Source of the DNA: Octopus vulgaris
Lineage: Eukaryota
Reading direction: 5' to 3'
Length of the DNA: 64,000 nucleotides
NCBI GenBank assembly: GCA_951406725.2
Contig: OX597816.1
Coordinates: 4,650,001-4,714,000 of the forward strand
Positions 21,563-48,220 of this stretch are shown piece after piece. Numbering within the stretch: the stretch's first letter is position 1; the number at the start of each line of letters is the position of its first letter. A program made the translations under genes and the position numbers. The notes beneath the pieces were generated by a model that worked only from the letters and a program-made list of their open reading frames with translations, searched no databases and was not told the origin of the DNA.

Positions 21563-21648
21563 TGAAGAGTCTACATATTTAAACAAATGAACCAATATAT
21601 TCACCTGATTAATATTGAATTCACTCATTTTTACTTTCCAATTAATAT

Positions 21649-22050: not shown

Positions 22051-22138
22051 TTCCATTTAATATTCTAATAACACTTTATTATAATTTAAATGTACAAAGT
22101 CAGATGAAACGAGTTCAAATTCTATGGCTATTTTAAGT

Positions 22139-22993: not shown

Positions 22994-23043
<50 letters not shown>

Positions 23044-23106
23044 ATACAATAATAATAATAACAAAATACAATAATAATAATAACAAAATACAATAATAAT
23101 AATAAC

Positions 23107-23421
23107 AAAATACAAAGACCTGGAAATAGAGGTAACTCGAATGTGGAGCCTAAAAACAGAAACATTTCCTATCATAGTAGGTGCATTAGGCATGATAAAA
23201 AAATATTCAGACAAATACATAACAAAAACTCCAGGACTTACAAACACATATAACATACAGAAAATTACACTACTGGGCACTGCACACATCCTACGCAGAA
23301 CACTTTCCATACAATAACCATCAGAGCATCACAACAAATCACAGCACATACCCAAAGCACACAGAGCTGCGCTCGGTAGTGAATGAAAGCACGCTATAAA
23401 AAAAAGACTACTGAATAATAA
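23107..23421 (+). mobile_element. R4/Dong-like LINE 3' end (restriction-like endonuclease C-terminus plus 3' UTR) within (AAT)n
   Basis: KYKDLEIEVTRMWSLKTETFPIIVGALGMIKKYSDKYITKTPGLTNTYNIQKITLLGTAHILRRTLSIQ*; (AAT)n on both sides. Confidence 0.85.
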
Positions 23422-23425
23422 TGAA

Positions 23426-23485
<60 letters not shown>

Positions 23486-23509
23486 GATGGTGGTGATGAT
23501 GATGATGCA

Positions 23510-23835
23510 GATGGATTTGAGGCAGATGGAATCAAACTCAATGACATGAAGGAAAAGACAAAAAGAGAGCACCTGTGGCGAGTGAGAAAAATATTGGCTT
23601 CAAAGCTGAATGCCCGAAACATAATTTTGGTAACCAACTTGTGTGCCGTCGTTGTCATTCAGTATGGCACCGTAATCCTGAAGTGGACAGAGAAGGAGCT
23701 AAAGGAGATGAACAGGAAGTCGAGAAAGCTCCTAACAATGCATGGAGCTCATCGTCCATGTGTTGACACTGATCTCCCTATACATGAAGAGAGCACATGG
23801 AGGAAGAGAAACAGATAAGTATGGAAGGCTGCATG
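23510..23835 (+). mobile_element. R4/Dong-like LINE post-RT fragment
   Basis: RVRKILASKLNARNII...ILKWTEKELKEMNRKSRKLLTMHGAH (ORF 23546-23818). Confidence 0.8.
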
Positions 23836-24245
23836 AGTATTTTGTAGTCTTTTGCATGTAGCATGGATTTATCTGATCATGTGAAGACTTCTCTTGGTCT
23901 TCCTACCTTTAACCATTCCGTCTTCATGATAAAGTTATTCTGTCATGAGAGTTTAGCATTGGAATTATATGGTTTCTCAAGAATTTCTCAAAGACGATCG
24001 GCCTACTTCATTCCTGAGGCTGATTGATGACTTCTAAGAAGCTGCATTACTGTCTTCAATGAGGATGGTAATAAAGGTGATGGCATTGCATCTTATGGTA
24101 GCTGAAGAATTTGGGGAACAATAAAAAGACTTCAGAAGGATGCTTTAAAGCATTCAGCCTCTACTCTTCCTCCTCCTCCTACCTCTGGGTACTTTCCAAT
24201 ATCCCTTTTCCTCCCTTACTGCCACGGTACCCACCCAGATGCTAA

Positions 24246-24246
24246 C

Positions 24247-24279
<33 letters not shown>

Positions 24280-24918
24280 GGTGGTGGTGGTGGTGGTGGT
24301 GGTGGTGGTGATGTGGTGGTGGTGTAGTGGTGGTGGTGGTGGTGGTGGTGGTGGTGGTGGTGGTGGTGGTGGTGATGATGATGGTGGTGGTGGTGGTGAT
24401 GATGGTGGTGGTGGTGGTGGTGGTGGTGATGGTGGTGGTGGTGGTGGTGGTGGTGGTGGTGGTGGTGGTGGTGGTGGTGGTGGTGGTGGTGGTGGTGGTG
24501 GTGGTGGTGGTGGTGGTGGTGGTGGTGTTGATGGTGGTGGTGGTGGTGGTGGTGATGGTGGTGGTGGTGGTGGTGATGATGGTGGTGGTGGTGGTGGTGG
24601 TGATGATGATGGTGGTGGTGGTAGTGGTAGTGGTGATGATAATGATATTGAGTATGATGGTGGTGGGAGTGGTGATGATGATGATGATGGTGGTGGTGGT
24701 TGTGGTGGTGGTGGTGGTGGTGGTGATGATGATGGTGTTGGTGGTAGTGGTAATGATGATGATGATGGTGGTGGTGGTTGTGGTGGTGGTGGTGGTGGTG
24801 ATGATGATGATGGTCGTGGTGGTGGTGGTGATGATGATGGTGTTGGTGGTAGTGGTGATGATGATGATGATGGTGGTGGGTGTGATGATGGTTACAGTGA
24901 TGATGATGATGATGATGA
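24246..24918. repeat. (GGT)n/(GAT)n array
   Basis: Direct reading. Confidence 0.95.
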
Positions 24919-25141
24919 AGGTAGATTTGAAATGAAAATAAAAATAATATTTGTTAATTTTTCCCAGCCAGAACAAAACAAAACAAAACAAAACAAAACA
25001 AAACAAAAAAATAAAATAAAATGAAATAAAAATATTTTCTAAGAAATGTGGCTAAAATAAATTGAATTGCTTACCGAATACTAATTATTATTGATTTCTA
25101 TAAAACTGAAACTGCAAAACTGACAGCTTTAGTTTTCTTAC

Positions 25142-25159
25142 AATAATAATAGTAATAGA

Positions 25160-25194
<35 letters not shown>

Positions 25195-25222
25195 TAATAA
25201 TAATAATAATAATAACAACAAC

Positions 25223-25269
<47 letters not shown>

Positions 25270-25552
25270 TAATAATAATAAATGATAATAATGATAATAG
25301 TAATAATAATAACAACAACAACAACAATAATAATAATAATGATAATATAATGATAATAATAATAATAATAACAATAATAATAATAATAAATGATAATAAT
25401 GATAATAATAATAATAACAACAACAATAATAATAATAATAATAATAATGATAATACTAATAATAATAATAATAATAACAATAATAATAATAAATGATAAT
25501 AATGATAATAGTAATAATAATAATAATAACAATAATAATAATAATAATAATG

Positions 25553-25583
<31 letters not shown>

Positions 25584-25812
25584 TAATAATAATAAAAATG
25601 ATAATAATGATAATAGTAATAATAATAATAATAACAATAATAATAATAATAAATGATAATAATGATAATAATAATAATAACAACAACAATAATAATAATA
25701 ATAATAATAATGATAATACTAATAATAATAATAATAATAACAATAATAATAATAAATGATAATAATGATAATAATAATAATAACAACAACAATAATAATA
25801 ATAATAATAATG

Positions 25813-25843
<31 letters not shown>

Positions 25844-25909
25844 TAATAATAATAAATGATAATAATGATAATAATAACAACAACAACAATAATAATAATA
25901 ATAATAATG

Positions 25910-25949
<40 letters not shown>

Positions 25950-26170
25950 TAATAATAACAACAACAACAATGACAACAAAAACGACGACAACAACAATAA
26001 TAATAACAACAATAAGAACAACAACAGCAGCAACAACAACAACAACAACAATAATAATAATAATAACAACAATAATAGTAATAATGATGATGATAACAGC
26101 AACAATAATAAAAATAATAATAATAATAATAACAATAATAATGATGATGATGATGATGATGATGATGATG
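25142..26170. repeat. (AAT)n/(AAC)n array with recurring variant blocks
   Basis: Direct reading. Confidence 0.95.
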
Positions 26171-26384
26171 GCAATTTCTTATAATAGTTTATGGCTATAA
26201 ATCTATAGAAATGGAAAATAATTGATTGAATAGTTCCAGAAAAATACTTAACTTTTATTTTTGTCTGAATTGTGAAAAAATAAAAAAAATGTGAATCTAA
26301 ACATTGCCAGGAATTTCATTGGTTGCTCTACCGCTTCTTCTGCCATGATATACCTTCAATGCCTCAATGTATACCATTATTGCT

Positions 26385-26467
26385 GGTGCTGCTACTGCTG
26401 CTGCTACTGCTACTAATAATAACTACAACAGCAACAACAACTACTACTGCTACTACCAGCACCACCA

Positions 26468-26510
<43 letters not shown>

Positions 26511-26736
26511 TACCACCACCACCACCACCACCACCACCACCACCACCACCACCATCATCATCACCATCACCACCACCACCACTACTACTACCACTACCAC
26601 CACCACCACCACCACCACCACCACTACTACTACTACCACCACCACCACCACCACCACTACTACTACCACCACTACCACCACCACCACCACCACCACCACC
26701 ACCACCACCACCACCACCACCACCACCACCACCACC

Positions 26737-26792
<56 letters not shown>
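26385..26792. repeat. (ACC)n/(ACT)n array
   Basis: Direct reading. Confidence 0.95.
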
Positions 26793-27304
26793 AGATTATG
26801 ATAGTAATGAACTTTGCCTTTCATCCTTTCAGGGTTGATAAAGTAAGTACCAGTTGAATAACGGGGTCAATAATGGGGTCAATTGACTTGACCCCATCCT
26901 CTAAACTGCTGGCCTTGTGCCAAAATTTGAAACCATTATTAAACACGTAGTTTAAGGTTTTATATGTTCAAACAACTCAAACAAAAACAATCAAAGCAAC
27001 AAAGAAACAAAACAAATAATCTTCAATCATAACCGACACCATTTTGTTAAAAAGAAAGAAATCAACAATTCTATGAAATAAATTGAATGGCAAAATAGAC
27101 GATGATTAATTTCATTGTATCAGCTTATTTCAATCATTTTGTGAAAGGTGTCTTGTAACAGGTATTTCAGAGACAGCTTCCTCTCAAAACGCTGTCACCA
27201 AAGAGAAAGGTTTTCCTCTTTATGGAAACCTCCAGAATAAAATTTAAATTAAAGGAGAATACTGGACTTCATTGAAGTTTCCATTGATCCCGTGAACTCA
27301 TGTT

Positions 27305-27670
27305 ATCATCATCATCATCATCATCATCATCATCGTTTAACGTCCGCTTTCCATGCTAGCATGGGTTGGACGGTTCAACTGGGGTCTGGCAAGCTCGAAG
27401 GCTGCACCAGGCCAGTCAGATCTGGCAGTGTTTCTACAGCTGGATGCCCTTCCTAACGCCAACCACTCCGAGAGTGTAGTGGGTGATTTTATGTGCCACC
27501 GACACAGGTGCCAGGCGAGGCTGGCAGACGGCCACGCTCGGATGGTGTTTTTATGTGCCACCGACACAGGTGCCAGACGAGGCTGGCAGACGGCCACGCT
27601 CGGATGGTGTTTTTATGTGCCACCGACACAGGTGCCAGACGAGGCTGACGAACGGCCACGCTCGGATGGT
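27305..27670 (-). mobile_element. Young family A copy with three 62-bp units
   Basis: CpG-rich, near-identical units gtgccaccgacacaggtgccag... Confidence 0.85.
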
Positions 27671-27805
27671 GTATATGGAGACATATGAGCTATGGAGGGT
27701 AAAAATACCTCAGAGGAAAATGCTAGAGCAAACACCCTAGCAAATGCAAAGAGGTTTGCAGCAAACAACAGAATCTGCAAAATTGAATTAAATAAACAAA
27801 ACAAG

Positions 27806-27970
27806 CAGGCGTAGGAGTGGCTGTGTGGTAAGTAGCTTGCTTGCGAACTACATGGTTCCGGGTTCAGTCCCACTGTGTAGCACTTTGGGCAAGTGTCTTC
27901 TACTATAGCCTCGGGCCGACCAAAGTCTTGTGAGTGGATTTGGTAGACGGAAACTGAAAGAAGCCCGTCG

Positions 27971-28015
<45 letters not shown>

Positions 28016-28250
28016 GTGTGTGTGTAAATGTTTGTGTGTCTGTGTTTGTCCCCCCCAACATCACTTGACAACTGATGCTGGTGTGTTTACGTCCCCGTAA
28101 CTTAGCGGTTCGGCAAAAGAAACCGATAGAATAAGTACTAGGCTTACAAAGAATAAGTCCTGGGGTTGATCTGCTCGACTAAAGGCGGTGCTCCAGCATG
28201 GCCACAGTCACATGACTGAAACAAGTGAAAGAGTAAAAGAGTAAGAGTAA
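27806..28250 (+). mobile_element. SINE family C, full length
   Basis: Head, CORE-like segment and tail as at 22139. Confidence 0.9.
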
Positions 28251-28455
28251 ATCTATAGATAGGAGAATTAAGTATTTGAAAGAAATGCCAAAAGATTCTT
28301 CATTCTGTGGGAACATTCCAGCCTCAAGGGACCAATGTTTAATTACAAAAGCTACAGAAATACAAAAGCAAGAGAAAATGTTGTTCACCTGGGTACACAC
28401 GTCCAAACTGACAAGACCAAAGGGAACCCACCCATATATGGTAATAATCAAGAGC

Positions 28456-28875
28456 AAGGCGGTGAGCTGGCAGAATCGTTAGCGCACCGGGCGAAATGCT
28501 CAGCAGTATTTCGTCTGTCTTTACGTTCTGAGTTCAAATTCCGCCGAGGTTGACTTTGCCTTTCAGCCTTTCGGGGTCGATATATTAAGTACCAGTTAAG
28601 CATTGGGGTCGATGTAATCAACTTAATCCATTTGTCTGTCCTTCTTTGTCCTCTCTGTGTTTAGCCCCTTGTTGGTAGTAAAGAAATAGGTATTTCATCT
28701 GACGCTACGTTCTAAGTTCAAATTCTTCCGAGGTCAACTTTGCCTTTCATCCTTTCGGGGTCGATAAATTAAGTACCAGTTAAGCATTGGGGTCGATGTA
28801 ATCGACTTAATCCCTTTGTCTGTCCTTGTTTGTCCCTTCTATGTTTAGCCCCTTGTGGACAGTTAAGAAATAAGT
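28456..28875 (+). mobile_element. SINE family B dimer
   Basis: aaggcggtgagctggcagaatcgttagc head; duplicated body. Confidence 0.85.
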
Positions 28876-29356
28876 AATACTCAAGAGCTACAATTAAAAT
28901 ATTCCCATGCTCATAGACATTCTGATTCCTTCTAACCAAAACATTGCATGGAAAGAAATAAAAGAAACTGCCAAACCACAAGGATATTGGCACCAAGATG
29001 AAGAAATGTGGTGAAGAAATGTTAACACACAAAGAATGATAATTGAAACACTAGGTATGCTGTAGAAAAATTATGAATGAAAACACACAAACCATAGCAG
29101 AGATTACAAAATTACATATTTAAAACAAAAGTTGTGTTTGGTACAGCCTGTTTCCTATAGAAGTCATATGTTCAGTAGCATGACTGGACATGCTTTATGA
29201 ATAACACACATTTCTCACAAAAGCCATTCAATATCCCTCAACTATCATGGCTGTTACATTCAAGAACCTCCTGCAATAGGTGAAAATCCACATAGTAGAA
29301 ACAGTACTGTACTGTATATTCTTAAAAAATTATTTTTCATAATTTGTATATATTTA

Positions 29357-29732
29357 TCTCTCTCTATATAAAGCTGAAGTTGTCTGTGTATGGCAGGTTT
29401 GGTAGCCTTCAACTTACACTATTTCCTCCAAGACCCTGCAGCGCAAGTTGACCAAAATTGAGGGTATGATAAAAGAAGGCTTGCTCTTCCTTCCATAGAA
29501 GAAAAAATTCAAATCGGACCATGTTAACACCAAAAATTATTTACATCAAAAAGGTGCTTTTTTTCTATGAAAATCCCTATTTTTATGATTTTTTTACTGC
29601 TGTATCGCCATTTTTCGGTGTATTTCAACCAGAAAAATGTTCACTCAAAGAGAATAACAAGCTACATAATGCAAAAGTTTTACTTTTCAAACATTCCAAT
29701 TCTAAAGGGTCAAAACAAACCCAAGCTGCTAG
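29357..29732 (+). mobile_element. Non-autonomous Helitron
   Basis: 5' TC...tatataaagctgaag, 3' CTAG preceded by a short gggt/accc hairpin, inserted between A and T with no TSD. Confidence 0.7.
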
Positions 29733-31049
29733 TTTTATTATAAGTGCAAAATGACACCATGGAGGAATCGATGTAAACTTAAATAATAAACCATGATAAG
29801 TGAACCATGATATGATGAAGGATTACTGAAATAACACGGTTCACATAACACACATTCCTAAATGATCAAATCTCAATGAAATAATTTTTGTTGTATCTTG
29901 GGAGCATCATTACGCCAATAATAAACACATGCACTGGTTCTGTTTCACTTCTTTTATCATTTGTCCATTATTAGTTAACTGATGGATTAAACAAGTAGTC
30001 AGTTAGTTGCTTAAATAACTAAACAATTGACTAATAATAAAGAAGTGAATTTGAACCAATGTTTGTGTTCATTATTGATGTAATGACCCTCCCAAGATAC
30101 AACAAAATTTGTTTCAACTGATGACTTCACATCAAGAATCTTGCAAACGAAATACAAAAAGACAAAACTCAATAACACGACCCTTGTGCTACATCTTCCA
30201 TACAATAGAATAAACAAGAAAATAACACCAGAAATAACAAACCAATCGCCGTAGTGAAGCAAAATAGGTCCACATCTGCAAAGACTGATACTGCCCGAGT
30301 TTCAGGACCAGAAATGGTAAAGATTAAACTAAGGGCAAGGCCAAAGTGGAACTCTCAATACTATTAAAGAACAAATGAAGTGAAAAAGAACGAATCGATG
30401 AGAAATATTTGGCAAAATTTAAAAAAAAAACAAAACAATGTCAACCAATATAAAAACCAACAATGGTTTATAATTTCTGGCTGGGAATCAGAAACTAGTC
30501 AGATCTGATTTCATTTCCATAAAATCAATGACCAGCCACAGAAGAATTCTACCCAAATAAAGTTATTAAACAAGATACTAATATAAACAGCCGTCTGTAT
30601 AATCAAGGAAAAGACAGAATTTGGCCGATTCCTTTTTGGTTATGTGAGTTTTGGAGAAGAGGAATAACTAGCAATAATCACAGAGTGATCTGTTGTGACT
30701 TGTGCATCAACACGGAAATATTCTAAGTTCTTACCAAACTTGGTATATGATAATGACAGGTCTTTGATAGATTGCTTCATGTAATTCCAGACCAACAAGG
30801 AAATAAAAGCAAGCTATGCCAGACATTATAATCAAAAAGGTGAATATCTAAAGAGCACGCATGTATGTTTAGAAACGTTTTTCATTCGGCATGAGAGAAG
30901 AAAAAAAAAGAAAGAAGAAGAAACATTTTGCAGAGAAGGAAACTGAGTGTTATTAATGGAGAGCAATGTTGAAGAGGGAAATGAGTGAGGAGAGGGATGC
31001 GAGAGAGAGAGAGAGAGAGAAAAACTGACAGCAACAATAATTGCTGTAT

Positions 31050-31110
31050 CTATCATCACCATTATCAACACCCTCATCATCATCATCATCATCACTGTCG
31101 TCATCATCCC

Positions 31111-31146
<36 letters not shown>

Positions 31147-31185
31147 TACCGTCATCATCCCCATCATCATCATCATCATGATCAC

Positions 31186-31230
<45 letters not shown>

Positions 31231-31413
31231 TATCACCACCATCATCAAAAACATTGTCAACATTGACAACACCATCATCGTTGTCATCATCATCATCACC
31301 ACCACCACCACCACCACGACCACTACCACCACCATCATCATCATCATCATCATTGTCAGCATCATCCTCATGAATTAAAAACCATCATCATCAACACCAT
31401 CATCATCATCATC

Positions 31414-31447
<34 letters not shown>
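31050..31447. repeat. (ATC)n array
   Basis: Direct reading. Confidence 0.95.
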
Positions 31448-31802
31448 ATTATATCTCCACATTTTTCTATGCTTTCATGGGTCGCACAGAATTCATAGAG
31501 GCAAATTTTCTATGGCTGAAGGCTCTTCTTGGGGCCAATCAAAGAAAGGTCATACTTACAGGTTGTCGACATGTTTCACACAGAATATTGGAAAATGAAT
31601 GACACTGCTGGTAGGACAGTGACACTCTTTTACAACTACTATGCAATGCCAAGACAAGAAGACATACTCACACACACACACACACACACACATACACATG
31701 CACACACACACAAATGTGTACAGTGTGTTTGGATTAAATTCGATAGTTTGTATGAAAAGAAAAGAATCTATTTTATTATAAATGCAAAACAATACATAGA
31801 GG

Positions 31803-32400
31803 ATTACTATTTCTAAATCTCACAACGAGAGATTTAGAACAACAGTACTTTGGAGTAAAGACTGTTTGCCAACATAACATGGCAGTCCTGGTTTAGGATG
31901 AATGTTACTGTTATTTAGCACCAGGAGACATCGTCTCCAGGTAGCTATATGACACGATCTGTGTCCTTATATTTTCGAACAAGGGAATCTAGCACCCCAA
32001 CGCACCTCAAAACAATATCTGTGTATCATGATTTCCAGGTTATTTCCCTTCATCAGCATAGAATAATTGTTCGGCTAGGGGTGGTGCTGCCAAATTCCTG
32101 TTCCAAATGTATAGTTTTCAATAAATTAGAAAATTACTATTTTTAAATCACACAACGTGAGATATTCAGCAACAGTACTTTGGAGTAAAGATTGTTTGCC
32201 AACATAACATGGCAGTCCTGGTTTAGGATGAATGTTACTGTAATTTAACCCCAGGAGACATTGTCTCCTGTTCGAAAATATAGGGACACAGATCGTGTCA
32301 TATAGCCAGCTGGAGATGATGTCTCCTGGGGCTAAATTACAGCAACATTCGTCCTAAACCAGGACTGACATGTTATGTTAGCAAACAACCTTTACTCCAA
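31803..32400 (-). mobile_element. Family R: 330-bp tandem unit plus terminal inverted partial copy; retrozyme/Penelope-like
   Basis: tggagtaaag at 31851 and 32181 (330-bp period); 32270-32400 is inverted; contains an HHR. Confidence 0.8.
32019..32061 (-). ncRNA. Minimal hammerhead motif in family R
   Basis: ctatg CTGATGA aggg aaataa cctg GAAA tcatga TA cacag; palindromic ATCATGAT stem III. Confidence 0.72.
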
Positions 32401-32475
32401 TACACAAAGGAATCGACATAAGCTAAAATAATAAACCACGATAGGTGAACCGTGATATGGCGAGGGATTGCTGTG

Positions 32476-32529
<54 letters not shown>

Positions 32530-32718
32530 CATGTATGTGGGAGTGTGAATGTATGTCTGTATATATATACATATATTTATATGTATAAATATCTAAAAAT
32601 ATATATGTATTATGTTACGTGTATGCATGTAAGCCCCTATGCATATGAGGATGTGGTTTTGTTCATATATGTATATGTATATATATATGTATAAGGATGA
32701 AAAGGAACACACGAGTTG

Positions 32719-33060
32719 ATATATATGAAAAAATAAGTCAAAATAGAAAATGCTAAAATAATTTTATAAAGAATATTTCAGTACCGGTTTCAGTCATTTT
32801 GAGACCTTTTCAACTGTAACGACCTCGAAGCCACAAGTGTGAACAAGAGAGACAGAGCAAGGCAGAAACAATGAAAATGCCACTTATATTTGAACACTAT
32901 ACAAATATTCCTTTAAAAAAACATTTCTTTTAATTTTTCTAAATTTAATTATTTAATCGTTACAGTTGAAAAGGTCTCAAAATGACTGAAACCGGTACTG
33001 AAATGTTCTTTATAAAATTATTTTAGCGTTTTCTATTTTGACTTATTTTTTCATATATAT
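32719..33060. mobile_element. Fold-back element (104-bp arms) with a U3-A8 variant HHR in each arm (32779-32816 minus, 32963-33000 plus)
   Basis: cag TTGAAAA ggtc tcaaaat gact GAAA ccgg TA ctg; ACCGGT palindrome. Confidence 0.75.
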
Positions 33061-33072
33061 ATATATATATAT

Positions 33073-33283
33073 CTGCCAGCCTCGTCTGGCACCTGTGTCG
33101 GTGGCCCATAAAATCACCCACTACACTCTCGGAGTGGTTGGCGTTAGGAAGGGCATCCAGCTGTAGAAGCACTGCCAGATCTGACTGGCCTGGTGCAGCC
33201 TTCGGGCTTGCCAGACCCCAGTTGAACCGTCCAACCCATGCTAGCATGGAAAGCAGACGTTAAACGATGATGATGATGATGAT
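33073..33283 (+). mobile_element. Family A copy
   Basis: Core motif and (GAT)n tail. Confidence 0.85.
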
Positions 33284-33565
33284 ATATATATACACACATA
33301 TATACATGGGTGTCTGTGTGTGTGTGGATATGCATGTATGTATATGTACATACATATGTTTGCGTGCGTATGTGCTTGTACGTATACATGTTTGTGTGAG
33401 TGTGTACGTATGTAGACGTTGTCGACGCAGGAGGTTTATGTCTATGTATTGTGAGAATATGGTTGCATGTACTTTTTATCTTTTTTCTTTTCCCACCTAT
33501 TAGAGTTACGTCCCTTATATTTAACAGTTTGTTTTTTTGTTTTTTCATAATGTCTGTTGCCATTA

Positions 33566-33624
33566 ATTGCAGACGACAATGCATTGTAGCTCTTACTCCG
33601 GCATTCGAAACTCCGAGTACTATA
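33566..33624 (+). ncRNA. Degenerate hammerhead motif
   Basis: CAGACGA c aatgc...gcatt c GAAA ctc c gag TA; U4 changed, stem I weak. Confidence 0.5.
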
Positions 33625-33662
33625 ATGACAATCTTTTACTGCTTGTTCTGAATTATGACATA

Positions 33663-33704
<42 letters not shown>

Positions 33705-34107
33705 CATACATACATATACATACATACATACATATACATACATACATACATATACATACATACATATACATACATACATGCATGCATGCATACATACATA
33801 CATACATACATACATACATACATACATCATTGTCATGCTGACATGGGTGAGGTGGTTTGACAAGAGCCAGCCAGACTGAAGCCTGCTCCAGACTTCTGTG
33901 ACTGTTTTGGCAGGATTTTTACAGCTGGATGCCTTTCCATTCACCAACCACTCAGTGGAGTGGACTGGCGAGGTTAACAGCATATACATATATGTATATA
34001 TATATAGAGAGAGAGATAGAGATAGATAGATAGATAGATATATAGATATATTATATATATATATCTATCTATCTATCTATATATATATATATGTGTATAT
34101 ATATATA

Positions 34108-34152
<45 letters not shown>

Positions 34153-34486
34153 CCCAAATTTTATTTAATTTGCTTTGCGGGAAGGACTGTTTCAACGCAG
34201 CCGCATATTGTCCTTGCTTTCGAGACGTGGAGTAGATGAAACAGGGACAACTGAAGAAGGGCAATATTCTTTATGTTGCATGTCTCGTTTCTCTGTATTT
34301 TTTTCGTTGTTCGAAAAAAGTTTGTTTTCCATGTTTTCGTTTTTATGTTTTTGTTTCTCATTGTTTTCAACGTTTTTTTTTTATGTCCTGTACCCGTATA
34401 TGCATATATATATACATATATATGCAGGTATGTACATATATGCATGTAGATATGCATATATTTATATTATATAGGCCGGTGCTTAC

Positions 34487-34531
34487 CATGCGTTGACAAG
34501 AGGCAATGACCTCGAAACTATAGTCCGTATG
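34487..34531 (+). ncRNA. Intact minimal type I hammerhead ribozyme, U3-A8 core variant, GUC site (predicted cleavage after 34525)
   Basis: catgcg TTGACAA gagg caatga cctc GAAA ctatag TC cgtatg. Stem I 6 bp, stem II 4 bp, stem III palindrome ACTATAGT. Confidence 0.85.
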
Positions 34532-34701
34532 TAGTACTCGGGTCTTCGAGGGAGGATGACCTCCCTTTGCAAACAACACAAGGACACTGAGATAGTGTCT
34601 AAAGTCCTTCTGGTGACGTTGATCGCCTGGGGCTAAAAGCATCAGTAACACCCCACCCCCTCCAGTGGCTAGCCACATTCAGATGGCTGATACCCCTTAC
34701 G

Positions 34702-34817
<116 letters not shown>

Positions 34818-35119
34818 TAGAATTTTCTCTGAATTTTCAGATTTTTGTATGCTAGGCTACTGGTTTTAAATTGATATTAATTAAATTAATATTCAATTTA
34901 TCTCCCTCATTATTTAAATGATAAAATAAATATGTTCTCTAATAGGCAGCATTAACTGCAGTAAATTATTTACTGCGGAATTTTTTCCCGGAATTTTAGT
35001 GCGCCAGAACTAAGACATTTGAAATTAACACCAATGTAATCGGTGAAGATAGGCACGTGTCTGTTTTTATACGGAATACTGATGGTTAGCTTTACAAATT
35101 ACATTACCTGTGGAACGAT

Positions 35120-35192
35120 CACACTGACTAGCCTACGGACAATGGATTACTTAAGTGATTCATTCGTTAATAGGCGAAACCACCGGTCTGCG
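35120..35192 (+). ncRNA. Degenerate hammerhead motif (G8 substituted)
   Basis: caca CTGACTA gcct...aggc GAAA cc acc gg TC tgcg. Confidence 0.55.
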
Positions 35193-35360
35193 AGTAATTC
35201 TGGTTTTGTATTTAATTTTCATCTGTCTTGCCTGCATTTCGTTCTGGTGTCCGTTGAATTTTCCTCTAGAGAACATTCCTTTCTTTGTAGTTTGATTGTA
35301 GGTGATCTACTTCTAGCATACGGCTGACCACATAGTGGTTTTGCTCTTCAAATATACATA

Positions 35361-35610
35361 CATCATCATCATCATCATCATCATCGTTTAACGTCCGTTT
35401 TCCGCGCTAGCACGGGTTGGACGGTTTCGACCGGGGTCTGGGGAGCTAGGGACTGCCCCAGGCTCCAGTCTGGTCTGGCAGTGTTTCTACAGCTGGATGC
35501 CCTTCCTAACGCCAACCACTCCGCGAGTGTAGTGGGTGCTTTTTACGTGCCACCTGCACAGGTGCCAGAGGGGTCTGGCATCGGTCACGTTCGGATGGTG
35601 CTTTTTATGT
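35361..35610 (-). mobile_element. Family A copy
   Basis: Core motif and tail. Confidence 0.8.
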
Positions 35611-35806
35611 GGGGGGGGTGCAGGAATATAGGGGAGCACCAGTGGGGAGGGGTGGTTCAGAGAAATGATGACAGGTTGTAGGCAAGTAGAACGTAGGATA
35701 TCAAGAGAGGGGTAATGCATGGTGAAATAGCGTATATATATATATATATATATACACAAACTTACTGTTAACACAGGTGAATGTGCATGGTGTTTATTTA
35801 TTCCAT

Positions 35807-36132
35807 GAGGGCGCGTGGCTTAGTGGTTAGGGCACTCGGCTCATGATCGTAAGGTTGTGAGTTCGATTCCCGGCGACGCGTTGTGTCCTTGAGCAAGACA
35901 CTTTATTTCACGTTGCTCCAGTCCACTCAGCTGGCAAAAATGAGTTGTACTTGTATTTCAAAGGGTCAGCCTTGTCACTCTCTGTGTCACGCTGATTATC
36001 CCCGAGAACTACGTTAAGGGTACACGTGTCTGTGGAATGCTCAGCCATTTGCACGTTAATTTCACGAGCAAGCTGTTCCGTTGATCGTATCAGCTGGGAC
36101 CCTCGTCGTCGTAACCGGCGGAGTTTTTTTTT
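35807..36132 (+). mobile_element. tRNA-derived SINE family E with 14-bp TSD
   Basis: A box TGGCTTAGTGG, B box GAGTTCGATTCC, gtgtccttgagcaagacactt domain; TSD tttatttattccat on both sides. Confidence 0.9.
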
Positions 36133-37041
36133 TTTATTTATTCCATAAATGAAAATTGCATTAAATACTACAAACGTACACTTTGGACAGACACAAAGAC
36201 CCTAATTTTTCATCAGTTATCGACTTAAAATACTAATACGTGTGTGTGTGTGTGTGTGTGTGTGTATCTAACATGTGACCTCTAAATCAAACTTAATATT
36301 GCAGTGCAATGAAGAAAACGGAGATTATTAAAAAAATAGTCACAGAAAAGCTATGAGGTTCTGCACTTGTTTATCCGTTTCTCTCGTCCTATTTCTCTTC
36401 TTGATTGGTTCATAAACTTAATAGAAATTCTTAAGAACACTTCTCTCTCTTTCTCTCTCTCTCTCTCTATCCCTCCCTGTTTCTCCCCCCTCTCTCTCTC
36501 TCTCTTTCGCAGAAGATTATTATTAAATAAATACTTAATGCATCTTCCTCCTCGTTATCACGCCCACCACACAAACGGGATTTTAATAAGTCTAATCAGT
36601 GATTCCTTTGCTAATTTAAGCTACCAATTCCACTTGGGAACACCGGGCCCTTTCAACTACTCTCAACAGAGCCTGAGGCACATCATCACCTCAACTCATT
36701 CTCACAAAGATAACAATTTTGGTAAAAAAAAAGAAATTGCACAAAATATCGATAGAATTGGAATTAAGAGTAAGACTTCGCCGTGTTCCAAATCATTAAT
36801 TCATGCATATATATGTGTGTGTGTGTGTGTATTCTTTTATTTTTTTCACTTATTTCAGTCATTTGGCGGCAGTCATGCTGGAGCGTCGCCTTTTAGTCGA
36901 GCAAATCGACCCCAGGACTTATTCTTTGTAAGCCTAGTACTTATTCTATCAGGCGTAGACACACCAGCATCAGTTAGGGGGGGGGGGGGGCAAACACAGA
37001 CACACAAACACACACGCACGCACATACACATGCATATATGT

Positions 37042-37277
37042 TAGTTAGTTAGTTAGTTAGTTAATTTGGCTCAAAAGCAAATAGCAAGGCCATGTAGGGG
37101 GACATGGAGTTAAGTACAGGGTGGTGTTCATGTAAAGAGTTCAGGCCACTTGAGGTCCAGGGAGGCTTTGAACAAAGCGGTCGGCGGCATCTTCACCATC
37201 TCATCTGGCAGCTTGTTCCACGGATCCGCAACCCGGACGGAGAAAGCTCCTCTCCTTCGATTGAGATGAAATCGTCA
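37042..37277 (-). mobile_element. CR1-type LINE 3' end with (TAAC)n tail, nested in a family C SINE (36835-37410)
   Basis: RFHLNRRRGAFSVRVADPWNKLPDEMVKMPPTALFKASLDLKW (F..RV...WN.LP...FK..LD motif). Confidence 0.8.
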
Positions 37278-37982
37278 CAGAACAGGCTTCTTTCAGTTTC
37301 CATCTACCAAATCCTCTCACAAGGCTTTGGTTGGTCTGAGGCTATAGTAGAAGACACTTGCCCAAGGTGCCATGCAGTGGGACTGAACCCGGAACCACAC
37401 AGCTTCTCCTAAGAAAATAATTATACTCAAGAAACCGATGCTAACAAGCAAATTAATTAATATATCTTCTATTTTTTTTATCTTTCGTCTTTTATTTTTT
37501 ACATGTTTCACTCATTAGACTGCGGCCATGCTGCAGCACTGCCCTGAGAGATTTTAGTTGACTGAATCGACCCCAGCACTTAGTTTTCTTTTCTTAAATC
37601 TGTTACTTAATCGATTGATCTCTTTTGCTGAACTGCTAAGTTATGGGGACATAAACACACCAACGCCAATTGTCAGGTTGTGGGAGGGGGACACACATAC
37701 ACACATGGAAAAGTGAATGATATATGATGATAATGGTGGTGGTGGTGGTGGTGGTGGTGATGATGATGATGGTGATTATGATGGTGATGATGATGATGAT
37801 TGTGATATATGAAGAAAAGGGAGGTTATCCTTCCCATAAACAACATGTGCTTCTACATGTCCATCGTACCTGCTAGAAATAGTAGTCAAGTCTCTAAAAA
37901 TCACCCCACCACCACAGTATTTGTTAAAGGAGGAAAAAACGTACACATTCAATAATGAAGTTCTCTCTTGCTCCCCCTCTCC

Positions 37983-38056
<74 letters not shown>

Positions 38057-38095
38057 ATGTCTGACAAATAAAGGTATTAGGTATTTAGTAGCAAT

Positions 38096-38515
38096 AAGGT
38101 GGCGAGCTGGCAGAAACGTTAGCACACTGGGCGAAATGAGTAGCCGTATTTCGCCTGTTGTTATGTTCTGAGTTCAAATTTCGCCGATGTCGACTTTGCC
38201 TTTCATCCTTTCGGGGTCGATAAATTAAGTACCAGTTACGCACTGGGGTCGATGTAATCGACTTAATCCGTTTGTCTGTCCTTGTTTGTCTTCTCTGTGT
38301 TTAGCCCCTTGTGAGTAGTAAAGAAATAGGTTTTTCGTCTGCCTTTACTTTCTGAGTTCAAATTCCACAGAGGTCGACTTTGCCTTTCATCCTTTCGGGG
38401 TCGATTAAATAAGTACCAGTTATGCACTGGGGTCGATATAATCGACTTAATCCGTTTGTCTGTCCTTCTTTGTCCTCTCTGTGTTTAGCCCCTTGTGGGT
38501 AGTAAAGAAATAGGC
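38096..38515 (+). mobile_element. SINE family B dimer inserted in an R4/Dong-like fragment
   Basis: TSD atttagtagcaat at 38083-38095 and 38516-38528; the flank encodes AYALAIQEQEIATK on the minus strand. Confidence 0.85.
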
Positions 38516-38825
38516 ATTTAGTAGCAATCTCCTGTTCTTGTATTGCAAGTGCATAAGCCTTCAAAGTCTGATGTGATGTAGTGGACTTGATTCATGTCGT
38601 TGTTACCATCATCTTCGAGTCTACCAGAAACACACCAATGTATGGCTTCTTTGTTTCGGTATGCTGAGCATTTCACCTCCAGGTCTTCTTTGAGGTGTTC
38701 TAGTCCAGCTGATGTTCTTTGTCCCTTTTTAATTTGGAGTGAATTTTGATCGGCCACCTACTTGGCAGCAAGGTTACGATGGAAAGTATGTTTTAACCAT
38801 CGTTCTTTAAATCTTTAGAGGGCCT

Positions 38826-39886
38826 CATCATCATCATTGTTTTACCTCCGCTTTCCATGCTGGCATGGGTTGGACGGTTTGACTGAGGTCTGGTGAGCCA
38901 GAGGCTGCACCAGACTCAATCTGATCTGGCAAAGTTTCTACAGCTGGATGCCCTTCCTAACACCAACAACCCCGAGAGTGTAGTAGGTGCTTTTATGTGC
39001 CGCCGGCATGAGGACCAGTGAGGCAGTTCTGGCAACGACCATGCTCAAATGGTGTTTTTTTATGTGCTACCTCCATGGGAGCCAGTCCAGCAGCACTGGC
39101 AGTGACCATGCTCAAATGCTGGCTTTCATGTGCCACTGGCACATGCGCTGGTAAGGCGACACTGGCAACAATCACGCTCGAATGGTGCTTTTTACATGCC
39201 ACCAGCACAGGAGCCAATCCATGGCCCTGGTGACGATCACGGTCGCATGTGGTTTTAACATTCCACTGGCACAAGTGCCAATGAGGCAGTACTGTCATCG
39301 GCCACACCAGCGATTTTGATTTGATTTCACTTGCTTTAATAGGTCTTCACAAGCAAAGGTTATTGTCCAATGAATGAGGGGTACTCATAAGTGGCCTGGT
39401 TGTACCCCACATTCAGATGTGCTTTTAACGCTCCACTGGCATGAGTGCCAATCAGGCGATGCTGTCATTGGCCATGTCAGCGATTTTAGTTGAATATAGT
39501 GCCGGTGGCATGTAAGAGAACCTTCCGTTTCGCGACCGTTGCCAGCGCCGCCCCGACTGGCCTCGTGCCGGTGGCACGTAAAAAGCACTATCCGTTCGTG
39601 TCCGTTGCCAGCCTCACCTGGCCCTCGTGCCGGTGGCACATAAAAAGCACCATCTGTTCATGGCCGTTTTCCAGCTCTGTCTGGCACCTGTGCGGGTGGC
39701 ACGTAAAAAGCACCCACTACACTCACGGAGTGGTTGGCGTTAGGAAGGGCATCCAGCCGTAGAAACAATGCCAGATTTGACTGGGCCTGATGAAGCCTTC
39801 TGGCTTCACAGACCCCAGTAGAACCGTCCAACCCATGCTAGCATGGAAAACGGACGCTAAACGATGATGATGATGATGATGATGAT
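38826..39886. mobile_element. Two family A copies head-to-head (38826-39490 minus; 39499-39886 plus)
   Basis: Outward-facing (CAT)n/(GAT)n tails and core motifs. Confidence 0.8.
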
Positions 39887-40199
39887 AGTCCCTTATATGA
39901 TCAGTTGTGGAGTATGAATTAAGGATTTGTATTCTCTCCCCAAGATCCTAAGTTCAGCTGTACTTTGCTCAGTATGTATCTTGTTGTCTCAGTAATGATG
40001 GGTATAGAACTGAAAGTCTATCTTGGGGGCTGGATTTGCAAACTCTTTAATTGGTGTCCAGAGGGCAGCTGATTTTCACAGCAGAACATACCTTTTGCTT
40101 GTGATCTCACATAGCCAGTTGTGTTTTAACCTGGTGACTTATGTATGTATGTATGTATGTATGTATGCATGTCTCATCTATTTTTTAATTATTATCAAT

Positions 40200-40825
40200 C
40201 TTCCACTGAGGAGGAAGCTGGTTTCCAACAAAGATACAAGGCTCCAGCTTTGGGATGTAGTTTACACAGACAAATTCACATTTGGAACTTGAGAAAAGTC
40301 TTGCATATTTTTACTGTTCCACTCACAGATTGCACTTGTAATGTGCAAAACAGCCAGTCATTTTCTCTTTCTGAAAATCCCAGTTTGTCCAGATTCTCCT
40401 TTAAGTATTTACTAAGAAAACCTAGTGCTCCAATTATTATTGGTATGAATATGAATTCATAGTCTAGATTTAGAAGCTGGAGGTTTCGAAGCAATTGTCC
40501 ATAGATATCCTCTTTTCCTTTGATTTTCAAAGAGATATTTATATCTGCAGGGCAACCGACCTCTATGATAGTACATACTTTTGTCCCTCTGACTCAAACA
40601 ACAACATCCAGTCTGTTATGTTTACATTTGAAGGACACTTTGATGGGAATATTCCACCAGTATTCCTTGAGTTGGTGTTTATGAACGTATTCCATAACAG
40701 GGATTTTCTAAGTTTATTTTAGGACAGACTTTTTTTGTGGATGGCATTGTAAATTGTTTTAGCGACAACATCGTGCTGCATAGGGCGGTGGTATTGTGAC
40801 GACATTTTAGGACAGCTGCTAATTA
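40200..40825 (-). mobile_element. R4/Dong-like LINE C-terminal fragment (Zn knuckle remnant plus endonuclease)
   Basis: ISSCPKMSS...HDVVAKTIY and KEDIYGQLLRNLQLL...IPIIIGALG (ORF 40276-40530). Confidence 0.8.
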
Positions 40826-40828
40826 CAA

Positions 40829-40862
<34 letters not shown>

Positions 40863-40877
40863 ATGTATGTATGTATG

Positions 40878-40908
<31 letters not shown>

Positions 40909-42244
40909 TGTTTTGTTGAATAAGCTCATGGCATGTGAAGTATGCTAATTTGCCTGAAATTCCTTGTACTTTCAGGGACAGAACACTTTTGCAATGTGTA
41001 CTCCAGTTCATGGGGTTGCGTTAAATACAGATCTGATGTCCTAGAGTCATTTTAAAGTGTCATGCTAACCTAAAAATGGCAACACAAGACGCCATTCCAA
41101 AATCCAAAATCCAAGAGAATGCTGCCACTGTTTTGATTCAAAGAATCAACCAGGATTCAAGTTGTTGGTAGTGTTAATAAAGTTTTCAGATTGTAGCAAG
41201 TTCTTACGAGGACAAAAATCTTTTAGAAAGATTACAGATTAAGTTTGCATTTCCTATTCCAAAAATGTCTAGTCTGAGAAAATATTTCCATTTGATCTTC
41301 TTCCCCCTGAGACTTTGAGAAAGTTTATCCATTGAGGAATTCTCGTCAGTCAGTTTTTTTGTTGTTGTTTTGTTTTTAGTTCTTATAAATATTTAATTCG
41401 GATTCAGTAAGAAGGCAAGCACCAGGATCCTATTTGTGTGGGGGTGGGGTGTTTGGGTGGTGGCTGTGTGTTTGCATGTGTGTGTGCGTCAATGTGTGAA
41501 TGTATGTATATATGAGTATGTATGAATTTATGTATGTGTATGTCTGGGTGTTCATGCATGTGTCTGTATGTATGAATGTACGTGTGTATATATGCATGTG
41601 TGTGAGTGTGTGTGTGTGTTATTTTTGATAAGGATCTTGAGGTATCTAACACATTTTAGACAAGGAATATATATATATATATGCCACACATTTTAATCGT
41701 ATTTCTAAGATATTTTGAGATTCTAAATACAACCAATGCTATTTTCACTTGCATACCTTTGCAGTGCATCTGCTTTGAAAGAATTTTTTCGTAGTTTTTC
41801 CCAATGGCTTAGATTTTTAATTTCAGCACAGTTTTAATTTTGAACATTGGTTCCCCCGAGTTACAACGATCACTGAAAATGGAATTACAACATTTGATTT
41901 TATTGAAAACTGGAATATACATCTTTATATCTTTGGTTCTTTCTTTGAATGGTAGAAGATCAGAGAATATTTTGAGCAGCAACAGGATACTTATATGGCT
42001 TCGTCCAGAGAATCTTAATGCTTTTGTTGCCATATTTCTGCTGAAATACTCTGCATTTGTTTCGATTAATTTAGAAAGTAAGGAAGAATTTAGCAAAATA
42101 GCTGTCCACAGAGATCAACTTTGCCTTTCAACCTTTTAAGGTTGATAAAATAAGTACCAGTTGTGTACTGGGGTCGATGTAATTGATTCCCTCTCCCCAC
42201 GAAATTTTGTGCCAAAATAAGAAACGATTATAAACACTGTCTTT

Positions 42245-42411
42245 ATTTATATTATTTACATTTGACGGATATTTGTCCTCATCTTGTTTGTTGTTAACAC
42301 AACGTTTCGGCTGATGTACCCTCTAGCTGTCATCAGGTGTCTTGGGGAAATTTCAAACCTGGGTTCTCATTCCTAAGGTATTTCTTGACAAATATAATAA
42401 TAATAATAATG

Positions 42412-42456
<45 letters not shown>

Positions 42457-42662
42457 TTGAAAAATACCTTAGGAATGAGAACCCAGGTTTGAAATTTCCC
42501 CAAGACACCTGAAGTAGGCTGGAGGGTATATCAGCTGAAATGTGTTAACAGCAAACAAGATGAGGACAAATATCTGTCAGATGTAAATAATGTAAATAAT
42601 GTAAATAACGTAAATAATGTAAATAATGTACATAATTCCTCACCTCTTAAATATAGAACTGT
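42245..42662. mobile_element. Inverted (tails-out) pair of family H 3' parts joined by (AAT)n
   Basis: 42250-42385 is the reverse complement of 42460-42590; HHR remnants at 42296-42341 (minus) and 42504-42546 (plus). Confidence 0.85.
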
Positions 42663-42712
42663 AAAAACCTGTTTTGTTACCATATTTCTGTTAAAATATG
42701 CTGTTTTTTTCA

Positions 42713-42960
42713 GTAAAGCTTATTTGCCAACATAAAGTGGCAATCTTGATTAGGACCAATGTTGCTCATATTTAGCCCCTGGGAAACATTGTCTCCAGCT
42801 GGTTATTGATGCATTAACTACATCCTTATATTTTTGAACAAGGGTATAGTGTCCCCACTCTGTCGATAGTCAGCTGGAGACGACATTTTTCTTGAGCTAA
42901 ATAACAGCAACATTGGTCCTAATCTAGATTGCCACTTCATGTTGGCAAATAACTTTACTC
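42713..42960. mobile_element. Diverged family R relative as an inverted pair
   Basis: tttgccaacat...tttagcccc...gtctccagctgg and its reverse complement. Confidence 0.65.
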
Positions 42961-43062
42961 TGTCATGCTCTGGCTACATGTTTCTTGTTCAGAGATTTAG
43001 AACGAATAATTTCTCTGCTGTATGTGTTTCAGTTGATTTTGAAAATAATTCCCAATATAATA

Positions 43063-43320
43063 ATGAAATTGTTGTATGCAGTGCTCAGGTGCACAACAAC
43101 TCGTCAAAAGTGCATATAAAGCATATGCAGTAATGTACAAATGTCTGGGAAGTGAACAGTGTATGAGTCAGATACATGCTTGCTTGTGTGTATGGAGGGG
43201 AGAAAATCAGGTGTTGTGTTGGCGAATCTCAGGGAGCATGGAAGTTTTGAAGGATGCAGTGCTCCGACAACTAACAACTGATGCCGGCAGTTTGTTCCAT
43301 GCTTCAGCAACTCTTAGCAT
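43063..43320 (-). mobile_element. CR1-type LINE 3' end (second copy at 56825-57085)
   Basis: LRVAEAWNKLPASVVSCRSTASFKTSM plus a shared 3' UTR. Confidence 0.8.
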
Positions 43321-43324
43321 TTCT

Positions 43325-45134
43325 AAGTTAAATGAGAGCTGCTCAACACAGCTCTTACAGCACTACGAATGGATGTTGAAACACTTGCTCAACAACTGAA
43401 ATGTGGATGTGACGGACCTCGACTTTGCAAATGCTTTTGACAAAGTTGACCATCGTATAATACACCACAAACTGTGTGATCTCAGCATAGTTGAACAAAT
43501 AGGAATGTGGCTACATGACATTTTAGAAAATAGAAGTCAAGCAGTGGTGGCCAATGGATCCAACTCTATGGAGACACAAATAGTGAGTGGTGTTCCACGG
43601 GCACTCTCTTAGGGCCACTACTATTAATAGTCGGCCTCTCAGATAGCTACCCTTGCTAGCTATGCAGGTGATACAAAAGTCTTTCAAAGGATACAGAACC
43701 CTGGAGATGTTGCACACCTGCAGCAGGAACTGGACACAAAATACAGAATGAGCTGTGGACATTAACATGCAATTTAATAGTAAAAGTTGTTTGCCAACAT
43801 AACATGGCAGTCCTGGTTTAGGATGAATGTTGCTGTAATTTAGCCCCAGGAGACATCGTCTCCAGCTGGCTATATGACACGATCTGAGTCCTTATATTAT
43901 CGAACAAGGGAATCTAGCACCCCCACTCAGCTCAAAACAATATCTGTGTATCACAATTCCAAAGTTATTTCCCTTCCTCAGCACAATAATTGTTTGGCTA
44001 GGGGTGGCACTGCCAAATTCCTGTTCGAAATATATAGTTTTCAAAGTGACAACTAGTCACTGATCTATAAATTAGAAAATTACTATTTGTAAATCTCACA
44101 ATGAGAGATATTCAGCAACAGTACTTTGGAGTAAAGATTGTTTGCCAACACAACCTGGCAGTCCTGGTTTAGGATGAATGCTGCTGTAATTTAGCCCCGG
44201 GAGACATTGTCTCCAGCTGGCTATACGACACAATCTGTGTCCTTATATTTTTGAACAAGGGAATCTAGCACACCCCACTCAGCTCAAAACAATATCTGTG
44301 TATCACGATTTCCAGGTTATTTCACTTCATCAGCACAGAATAATTGCTCGAAAATATAAGGACACACATCGTGTCGTATAGCTAGCTGGAGATGATGTCT
44401 CCTGGGGCTAAATTACAGGAACATTCGTCCTAAACCAGGACTGCCATGTTATGTTGGCAAACAATCTTTACTCCAAAGTACTGTTGCTGAATATCTCACG
44501 TTGTGAGGTTTACAAATAGTAATTTTCTAATGCAGTTTAATGTCAGAAAATTCCAGGCTTTGCCCTACCAGCACAAGAAGATGAATAAAACACAGACAGG
44601 CTACATTGGTCCAGGAGGGATTGCAATCCCTGAATCAACATCAGTGCCTGACTTGGGCATTGACATGAGTAATGATGCGTCTTCCCATATTACTAAAATG
44701 CTGGCGGCTGTCTGACTGGATCCTTAGAACTTTCAGAACGAGAGAACAGGAAACCATGATGGCCCTCTGGAGGACATGTGTTCTTGGCCACTTAGACTAC
44801 TACTCCCAACTATAGTCACCACACAGTGTAAGATTAATGGTAGGACTTGAAGCAATCTAGTAAAGCTACATGAAAATTGTCTACATGCGATAAGTCAGCT
44901 ACTGGGAAAGACTGGGAAAGTTAAGACTCTACTCCTTAGAACAAAGACAGAAAAGATAAGCGGTGATATTCATCTGGAAAATTCTGGAAGGACTTGTTAT
45001 CAAATTCTGGCATTGAAGGTTACACAAACACCAGAACAGTGCTCCACTGCATAGCGTCAAGGATCCCAACATTGCCACCAGGATAAGGACCAAATACTAT
45101 AACAGCTTGGATTTCAAGGGCCCCGCAGCTCTTC

Positions 45135-45175
<41 letters not shown>

Positions 45176-45177
45176 AT

Positions 45178-45208
<31 letters not shown>

Positions 45209-45216
45209 ATCATCAA

Positions 45217-45267
<51 letters not shown>

Positions 45268-45268
45268 T

Positions 45269-45300
<32 letters not shown>

Positions 45301-45967
45301 TATCATCATCATCATCATCATCATCATCAATCATCATCATCATCATCATCATCATCATTATCATCATCGTCATCATCATTTAACGTCTGTTGTTCATTCT
45401 GGTATGGGCTGGACGGTTTGACCAGAGTTGGCAAGCTGGTGGGAGCTGCACCAGACTCCAGTCTGATTTGGCATGGTTTCTATGGCTTGATGCCCTTCCT
45501 AAGATGCCAACCACTTCACAGAGTGTGAAGGGTACTTTTACATGGTGCTGCACCGGCGTTTGTACACGGCACCACGTGAGCACTTTCATGTGGGACTGCC
45601 ATGTGTGCTTTTCACTACTAGAGGGACCGGTCTTATCACTTCTACTGCTGAGTGTGTGTCTTCTCGAGGACAGCGTGACGTCTCAGGTATTTCAGTCCTT
45701 CGTCCCCAAAAAGCCTGAGAGACCTACATGGGGGTTTGTGGAGATGTCTTCAAAACAGAACTGGATCTACACTTCTCAAGAGTTTCAGATGAACCTACCT
45801 TGTGGCACGAAATGCGTATGAGGGTAGCAAGTTCAAACTCCCTCGGTTACCCTATTCCACATATCAGAGGAGTTTTTCAAGTAATAAAAGTGCAGCAAAG
45901 CTAAGGGCGGTGCCCCAGCGTGGCCACAGCTCTCGAGCTGAAACTGAAAAAAAGAATAAAAGAATAA
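43325..45967 (+). mobile_element. Degenerate CR1-group LINE (RT domain to 3' tail), interrupted by family R (43779-44529) and (ATC)n plus family A (45136-45690)
   Basis: LDFANAFDKVDH, SGVP.G..LGPLL, YAGDTKV, MQFNVRKFQ, GP.LFN...VFKTELD...DEP motifs with stops and frameshifts. Confidence 0.88.
43779..44529 (-). mobile_element. Family R insertion: ~352-bp tandem units plus inverted partial copy; HHRs at 43944-43986 and 44296-44338
   Basis: TSD-like atgca(a/g)tttaat at 43767-43778 and 44530-44541; ctgtg CTGATGA...GAAA tcgtga TA cacag. Confidence 0.82.

Positions 45968-48186: not shown

Positions 48187-48220
<34 letters not shown>

Follow-up and report, generated by a model that had tools for sequence, protein, structure and literature searches.

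A U3-A8 hammerhead in an Octopus vulgaris intron traced to a truncated retrozyme with PLE-like insertion ends

In the window analysed here, the whole stretch of 64,000 nucleotides of Octopus vulgaris DNA, a hammerhead motif at 34487-34531 lies in the sense direction within a large intron. We consider it highly probable (about 0.85) that this motif is the hammerhead of a truncated retrozyme of ~355 nt, likely pasted by PLE machinery into an intronic (TA)n tract and likely without function for the host. What is new is the family to which it belongs, not the U3-A8 core itself: a sequence-only reading of this DNA had singled out the core, but U3-A8 hammerheads were already known from nature, with activity in vitro reported in the available part of PMC3088659 and about 1,300 hits in S. 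mansoni given in that of PMC4209133. On the question of which enzyme moves animal retrozymes, the paired short and tailed ends of the family described below are a direct genomic footprint.

The hammerhead and its host intron

Features of the window, with the basis of each call:

12636..12713, + strand: upstream host exon, calponin-homology region (tblastn with a homolog)
12714..53646, + strand: host intron, GT-AG, 40,933 nt (splice borders, open spliced frame)
53647..53768, + strand: downstream host exon (extent of the tblastn match; 3' border not fixed)
34400..34473, unstranded: degenerate TA-rich tract at the 5' junction (sequence)
34474..34703, + strand: 5'-truncated copy of a 352-363-nt retrozyme unit, subfamily S3 (family comparison)
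34474..34544, + strand: entire hammerhead, helix I extended past a UAC bulge (folding; predicted loop 1 - loop 2 contact)
34487..34531, + strand: type I hammerhead core unit (sequence, descriptor search)
34704..34813, unstranded: (TA)n tract at the 3' junction, likely insertion target (sequence)
32690-33070: inverted insertion of a PLE pseudo-LTR, with hammerheads at 32963-33000 (+) and ~32779-32816 (-)
~21390-21435, - strand: minimal PLE-type hammerhead, C3-G8, 6-bp helix II, 4-nt palindrome

The host gene was located through flanking exons and a homolog. Two large + strand exons 66-87 kb downstream of the window encode a protein whose homolog is P0004, with an N-terminal calponin-homology domain, and tblastn with P0004 matched the window at 12623-12715 and 53643-53768 as well as additional exons to either side. 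Splicing at the GT-AG borders (12714 and 53646) leaves the frame open, and the sense position in a 41-kb intron claimed for the motif is thus borne out, by homology rather than by transcripts. Pfam on 265 ORFs of the window returned no host exon and two weak matches only, a DUF and an RT fragment, one homolog search for the host gene gave no match, and two hand-picked exon candidates turned out to be wrong. The gene spans ~190 kb (about 4.615-4.805 Mb of the contig) with its calponin-homology region at the N-terminus; the database protein P0001 (1622 aa) is without these exons, perhaps because its gene model is truncated.

The motif consists of three helices around a conserved core, with helix I open and an NUH site, as in type I hammerheads, and shares the 45-nt layout of RF00163 (Hammerhead_1). 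Helix I (34487-34492/34526-34531) has 6 bp, five of them Watson-Crick and one G•U; the core UUGACAA (U3 U4 G5 A6 C7 A8 A9) occupies 34493-34499; helix II (34500-34503/34510-34513) has 4 bp and a loop of 6 nt and is followed by GAAA; an 8-nt palindrome at 34517-34524 forms a helix III of 2 bp plus tetraloop; and the GUC site predicts a cut after 34525. The extent of 34487-34531 given earlier holds for this core unit, but the ribozyme is larger, since helix I runs on to 34474-34544. The hammerhead-compatible fold lies above the minimum-energy fold by 2.4 kcal/mol in three local contexts and by 5.2 in a 450-nt context, and helix III is computed at +2.9 kcal/mol as a monomer (2 bp plus tetraloop) against -7.2 as an 8-bp duplex in a dimer. 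A descriptor that requires helix III to be palindromic matched 5 times in the 64-kb window plus 200 kb of flanks; its background was 0.025 per shuffled 64 kb, and nothing as strict as the window motif appeared in 40 shuffles. With the layout legible in the sequence and the shuffled controls nearly empty, the sense-strand hammerhead is real.

That such a core would be missed by CUGANGA searches was also confirmed. An Rfam scan of the window motif gave no hammerhead at E<=10 and only microsatellite noise, as opposed to 32.2 bits on RF00163 for a C3-G8 relative aligned over model positions 1-45; a copy of subfamily S1 scored 12.3 bits. Neither the window copy nor the canonical relative reached the gathering score of 34 bits, and since the canonical relative itself falls below it, the model is narrow. 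Among exact-pattern matches of the lineage, 269 of 314 would be invisible to CUGANGA searches.

A retrozyme family of about 355 nt

A repeat unit of ~355 bases is present hundreds of times in the genome (2.8 Gb in ~30 large contigs). A search with the 230-nt window copy gave 2370 first-look candidates, of which 40 were scored, and among the 49 matches listed 41 cover nearly all 230 nt at 92-100% identity. The ~230-bp element of the sequence-only reading therefore exists as a copy of 230 nt, but as a truncated piece of the longer unit: it stops at the 'short' 3' site of the family, 178 nt past the cut site, and is without an inverted arm. Successive hammerheads of head-to-tail units are 352-363 nt apart in 24 of 26 cases (337 and 348 nt in the other two), with one hammerhead per unit and runs of up to five units, and the sampled copies that extend 5' enter another unit rather than an ORF. 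A sister family, S0, of 353 nt and ~60% identity, has 474 pattern matches, of which the first 100 listed are all C3-G8.

The unit has a GC content of 0.42-0.50 and is highly self-paired: circular folds of five representative monomers gave z of -3.8 to -7.0 and a long rod with the hammerhead at its tip. Of 98 consensus pairs, 19 differ among these five representatives on both sides, 20 on one side and 31 on neither, and 39 are disrupted in one representative or more; these classes overlap, and part of the alignment is out of register. Helix III is palindromic throughout the family and occurs in three versions, 6 or 8 nt long. The covariation expected within the family was found in helix I, where one pair occurs as C-G, U•G and U-A, but not in helix II, which is invariant apart from a G•U in the largest subfamily.

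Tandem units in the range of 150-450 bp, one type I hammerhead in each, GC below ~50%, strong self-pairing and no RT of its own, the unit being too short to encode one, make the family a non-LTR retrozyme by anatomy. It resembles the metazoan non-LTR retrozymes of Cervera & de la Peña 2020 (PMC7229834), as far as the available text describes them, in its ~350-nt tandem non-coding units, in the single canonical type I hammerhead per unit, in GC and self-pairing, and in the short palindromic helix III. It differs from that description in that its main subfamilies have U3•G8 or U3-A8 cores, and in its fixed paired 3' ends, tails and inversions, which do not appear in the portion of PMC7229834 at hand; those retrozymes occur as circular RNA, whereas the present family is known from genomic DNA. 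Contigs of four runs presumed to be RNA cover variants of the family; they carry no information on circles or ends and none spans the window copy, and against that copy no difference is listed before 34507 or after 34668, the contig mismatches being more numerous than those listed, so that the list probably bears on neither position 3 nor position 8.

Insertion ends and probable PLE mobilisation

The 3' ends of the family fall at two fixed sites ~45 nt apart. Among 267 3' anchors there were 103 short ends, 67 tailed ends, 89 read-through and 8 other, with tails of 41-48 nt. The flank opens with (TA)4 at 69 of the 103 short and 45 of the 67 tailed ends, flank AT is 0.89-0.92, and target-site duplications are obscured by the (TA)n flanks. 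Among 126 insertions, both ends could be classed in 47 back-to-back inversions, and these combine a short with a tailed end in 45 cases, two short ends in 2 and two tails in none; independence predicts 48% mixed ends (p about 1e-12).

An inverted 5'-truncated arm, a tail on one side only and an AT-rich target are the insertion signature of PLEs, and inverted arm, one-sided tail and (TA)n bias have all been described for them (PMC8557442, in its available part, and a preprint). In the accessible sections of PMC11167929 the one-end tail is called unique to PLEs and is traced to two internal starts of reverse transcription, and hammerhead mutants are reported to insert still in vitro. PLE mobilisation of retrozymes has only been proposed, with PLEs named a 'strong candidate' (PMC7229834, as available). 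The presence of a signature regarded as unique to PLEs in 45 of 47 inversions thus gives genomic support to this proposal. Fixed internal starts downstream of the hammerhead are a further likeness to PLEs in the sources cited; the present family differs from those elements in having no ORF for RT and GIY-YIG in the copies sampled and in its canonical rather than minimal hammerhead, and its tail of ~45 nt slightly exceeds the 30-40 nt they describe. We conclude that at insertion the family works like a non-autonomous PLE, and the fixed 3' ends are compatible with a non-circular template.

PLE machinery is present in the same genome. The hammerhead at 32690-33070 is of the minimal PLE type, with U3-A8, a GUA site and a 6-nt palindrome, and its family has 902 candidates genome-wide and the same end pattern as the retrozyme; all 33 matches, in 25 partly overlapping loci, are U3-A8, with 13 tailed and 20 short ends. 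One copy of this family is linked to an ORF that encodes both an RT-like thumb and a GIY-YIG domain, so that RT-like thumb, GIY-YIG domain, tail and (TA)n ends occur in one PLE. The element at 32690-33070 is an example of such machinery, and only a candidate as partner of the retrozyme: the 3' end of the PLE found has no evident sequence in common with that of the retrozyme, unlike the non-autonomous PLE derivatives of Chlamydomonas, which resemble the autonomous 3' end in the descriptions available.

States and phylogeny of the 3-8 pair

Exact patterns gave genome-wide counts of 224 U3•G8, 45 U3-A8, 43 C3-G8 and 2 C3·A8, with 0 for reversed controls; the counts are lower bounds, and the C3 pattern is slightly looser. 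The 198 copies fetched, from loci that are best BLAST hits plus pattern hits and no random sample, comprise 98 U•G, 50 U-A, 47 C-G and 3 C·A, and these states track linked sites. The 3-8 pair is Watson-Crick in the window copy and is not in the 224 U3•G8 relatives; the most amplified subfamily also has a G•U at the base of helix II. The 3-8 covariation is the same as that of the U3-A8 hammerheads of PMC3088659 and of the Cercyon PLEs of S. mansoni (PMC4209133), and the family differs from what the available parts of both papers contain in an amplified U3•G8 family and in having both single-change intermediates in one lineage. Our literature search found no tail signature on retrozymes and no amplified U3•G8 family; work on PLE hammerhead dimers or on 3-8 exchange, or the retrozyme supplement, may report U3•G8 or cephalopod retrozymes.

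The main tree has 97 rows and 3 outgroup rows, chosen from 133 copies with both anchors and then as one per locus, core and loop. It forms a ladder from U•G (S4) to U-A (S3), then across a long branch to U-A (S2) and to the C-G clade S1 (100/98), where two of the three C·A copies branch off at the base of this clade and the third sits on the long branch. The window copy has no upstream anchor and so is absent from this tree; it falls in S3 in two other trees, with a terminal branch of 0.005-0.010, and differs by ~1% from its closest relatives. When columns 3 and 8 are left out (84 rows, one of them degraded and misfiled, bootstrap not fully settled), all five C-G copies on the S4 side fall in a terminal group of 15 rows.

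Tests of the root reject the base of S1 (p-AU 0.007) and allow the long branch (0.097). Outgroup polarity favours the U•G end (41 vs 16, p=0.001; 38 vs 16, p=0.004), most single steps not being significant, and two outgroups agree better with the S4 end than with S1. The root thus most likely lies in S4. Whichever allowed root is taken, S1 has probably regained C-G from U-A by way of C·A, and the reading that fits best, though unproven, is a complete circuit C-G→U•G→U-A→C·A→C-G. A genuine caveat is that template switching could distort the tree, and 3 of 129 insertions mix core states. Insertions at L133, L135, L146 and L043 have arms differing in core state or loop 2 and include one copy that stands between subfamilies; template switching between retrozyme RNAs possibly explains such mixed arms. 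A-to-I editing was rejected as a source of the variation (private A>G 21 vs T>C 15, p=0.41).

Activity, spread and rival explanations

The sequence-only reading held that the double change to U3-A8 preserves the fold. It is indeed a covariation, but it need not be neutral: in a full double-mutant scan of another hammerhead, only the G3-C8 swap rescued activity, and all other single and double 3-8 changes were low (PMC9901934). The window copy would cut the nascent intron slowly at most. No second hammerhead with the same palindrome was found in the 264 kb examined, so it has no dimer partner in cis. Tandem runs are more frequent for C-G (11/29) than for U-A (5/39, p=0.02) or U•G (7/62, p=0.005) among mismatch-tolerant, pattern-hit loci, and C-G is also favoured by exact coordinates (29/102 vs 8/133, with the first 100 matches listed for S0 and for U•G), a count in which older copies lose exact matches. 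These numbers fit a production of circles mainly from canonical cores, age and short fetched windows being confounders.

In the mechanism that we propose, multimeric transcripts with a canonical core would be cut to monomers and then circularised. A PLE protein would nick AT-rich DNA, and reverse transcription would begin at two internal sites that lie ~178 and 223 nt beyond the cleavage position, the two start sites giving one short and one tailed end. Insertion would be independent of ribozyme catalysis, so that subfamilies with weakened cores (U3-A8, U3•G8) could still spread, and the 3-8 pair would have stepped through all four transition states. We put forward only tentatively, as somewhat short of an even chance, that a complete natural loop of the 3-8 pair is preserved with its intermediates, that U•G won as PLEs insert without cleavage, and that only canonical cores circularise efficiently for tandem insertions. 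If true, this would be the first direct footprint of PLE-driven retrozyme mobilisation together with a natural fitness landscape of the hammerhead core. The mapped ends name exact RT start sites for the existing in vitro PLE system, and C-G, U•G, U-A and C·A, which occur as natural alleles against almost the same background, lend themselves to asking how a catalytic tertiary pair gets across a fitness valley, and whether self-cleavage matters for the spread of an element.

It might be supposed that the hammerhead has been co-opted as a cis-regulator, cutting the nascent intron and tuning expression or splicing of the host gene. It does lie in sense within a real intron with its full extended helix I kept, and conserved intronic hammerheads exist in amniotes (PMC3088659, as available). 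Furthermore, in this intron both sense hammerheads are U3-A8 and the recognisable C3-G8 ones antisense, a handful of cases that hints, anecdotally, at a purging of strong ribozymes from the sense direction. However, the amniote intronic hammerheads are single-copy and at orthologous sites, and the window copy is young and high-copy, one of hundreds, in an intron with six hammerhead-like motifs from four repeat families (the window copy and five from three others). The missing partner in cis and the low activity of U3-A8 in one scan speak against it too, and splicing has been reported to proceed despite cutting of the intron by a slow hammerhead (cited in PMC2995048, in the part available). A regulatory role is therefore very unlikely, and from its youth and copy number we infer that the copy is probably ordinary intronic debris for the host gene.

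It is just as improbable that the repeat is a pseudo-LTR belonging to an autonomous PLE family and its copies 5'-truncated coding elements, as the same insertion signature and the hammerheads carried by PLE pLTRs (PMC4209133, available text) might suggest, since 5' extensions of sampled copies lead into further units, up to five, rather than into an ORF, and the hammerhead is canonical with a bulge, unlike the minimal PLE type at 32963-33000. Mere decay of inactive copies by C-to-T and CpG change, which would make the U3-A8 core here accidental, is hardly credible as a general account. In the U•G subfamily, position 8 is part of a CpG, and single U-A copies do occur inside the U•G group (L043, L028); but CpG transitions of ~1.2% per site predict ~3 U-A copies from 224, not 45, and the U-A copies are united by linked diagnostic sites and fall into two subfamilies flanking a long branch. 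Decay is thus largely refuted for the subfamilies and may apply to a few individual copies. A truncated retrozyme likely inserted by PLE machinery remains the reading that we prefer.

Other repeats in the window

Fragments at ~31800-32400 and 43770-44300 belong to a distant retrozyme-like family with a ~300-nt period, whose hammerhead is antisense and C3-G8 with an 8-nt palindrome in helix III. This family has a hairpin module in common with the main family and stops at the homologous 3' position, and the shared module may be a recognition site for RT. At 46811-47749, a tandem array of a GC-rich unit gives an open frame of 312 codons and is probably repeat-derived. Elsewhere in the genome, a 428-aa stretch that adjoins a PLE copy (locus L086) looks like a PIF1-type helicase and may be of Helitron-like kind.
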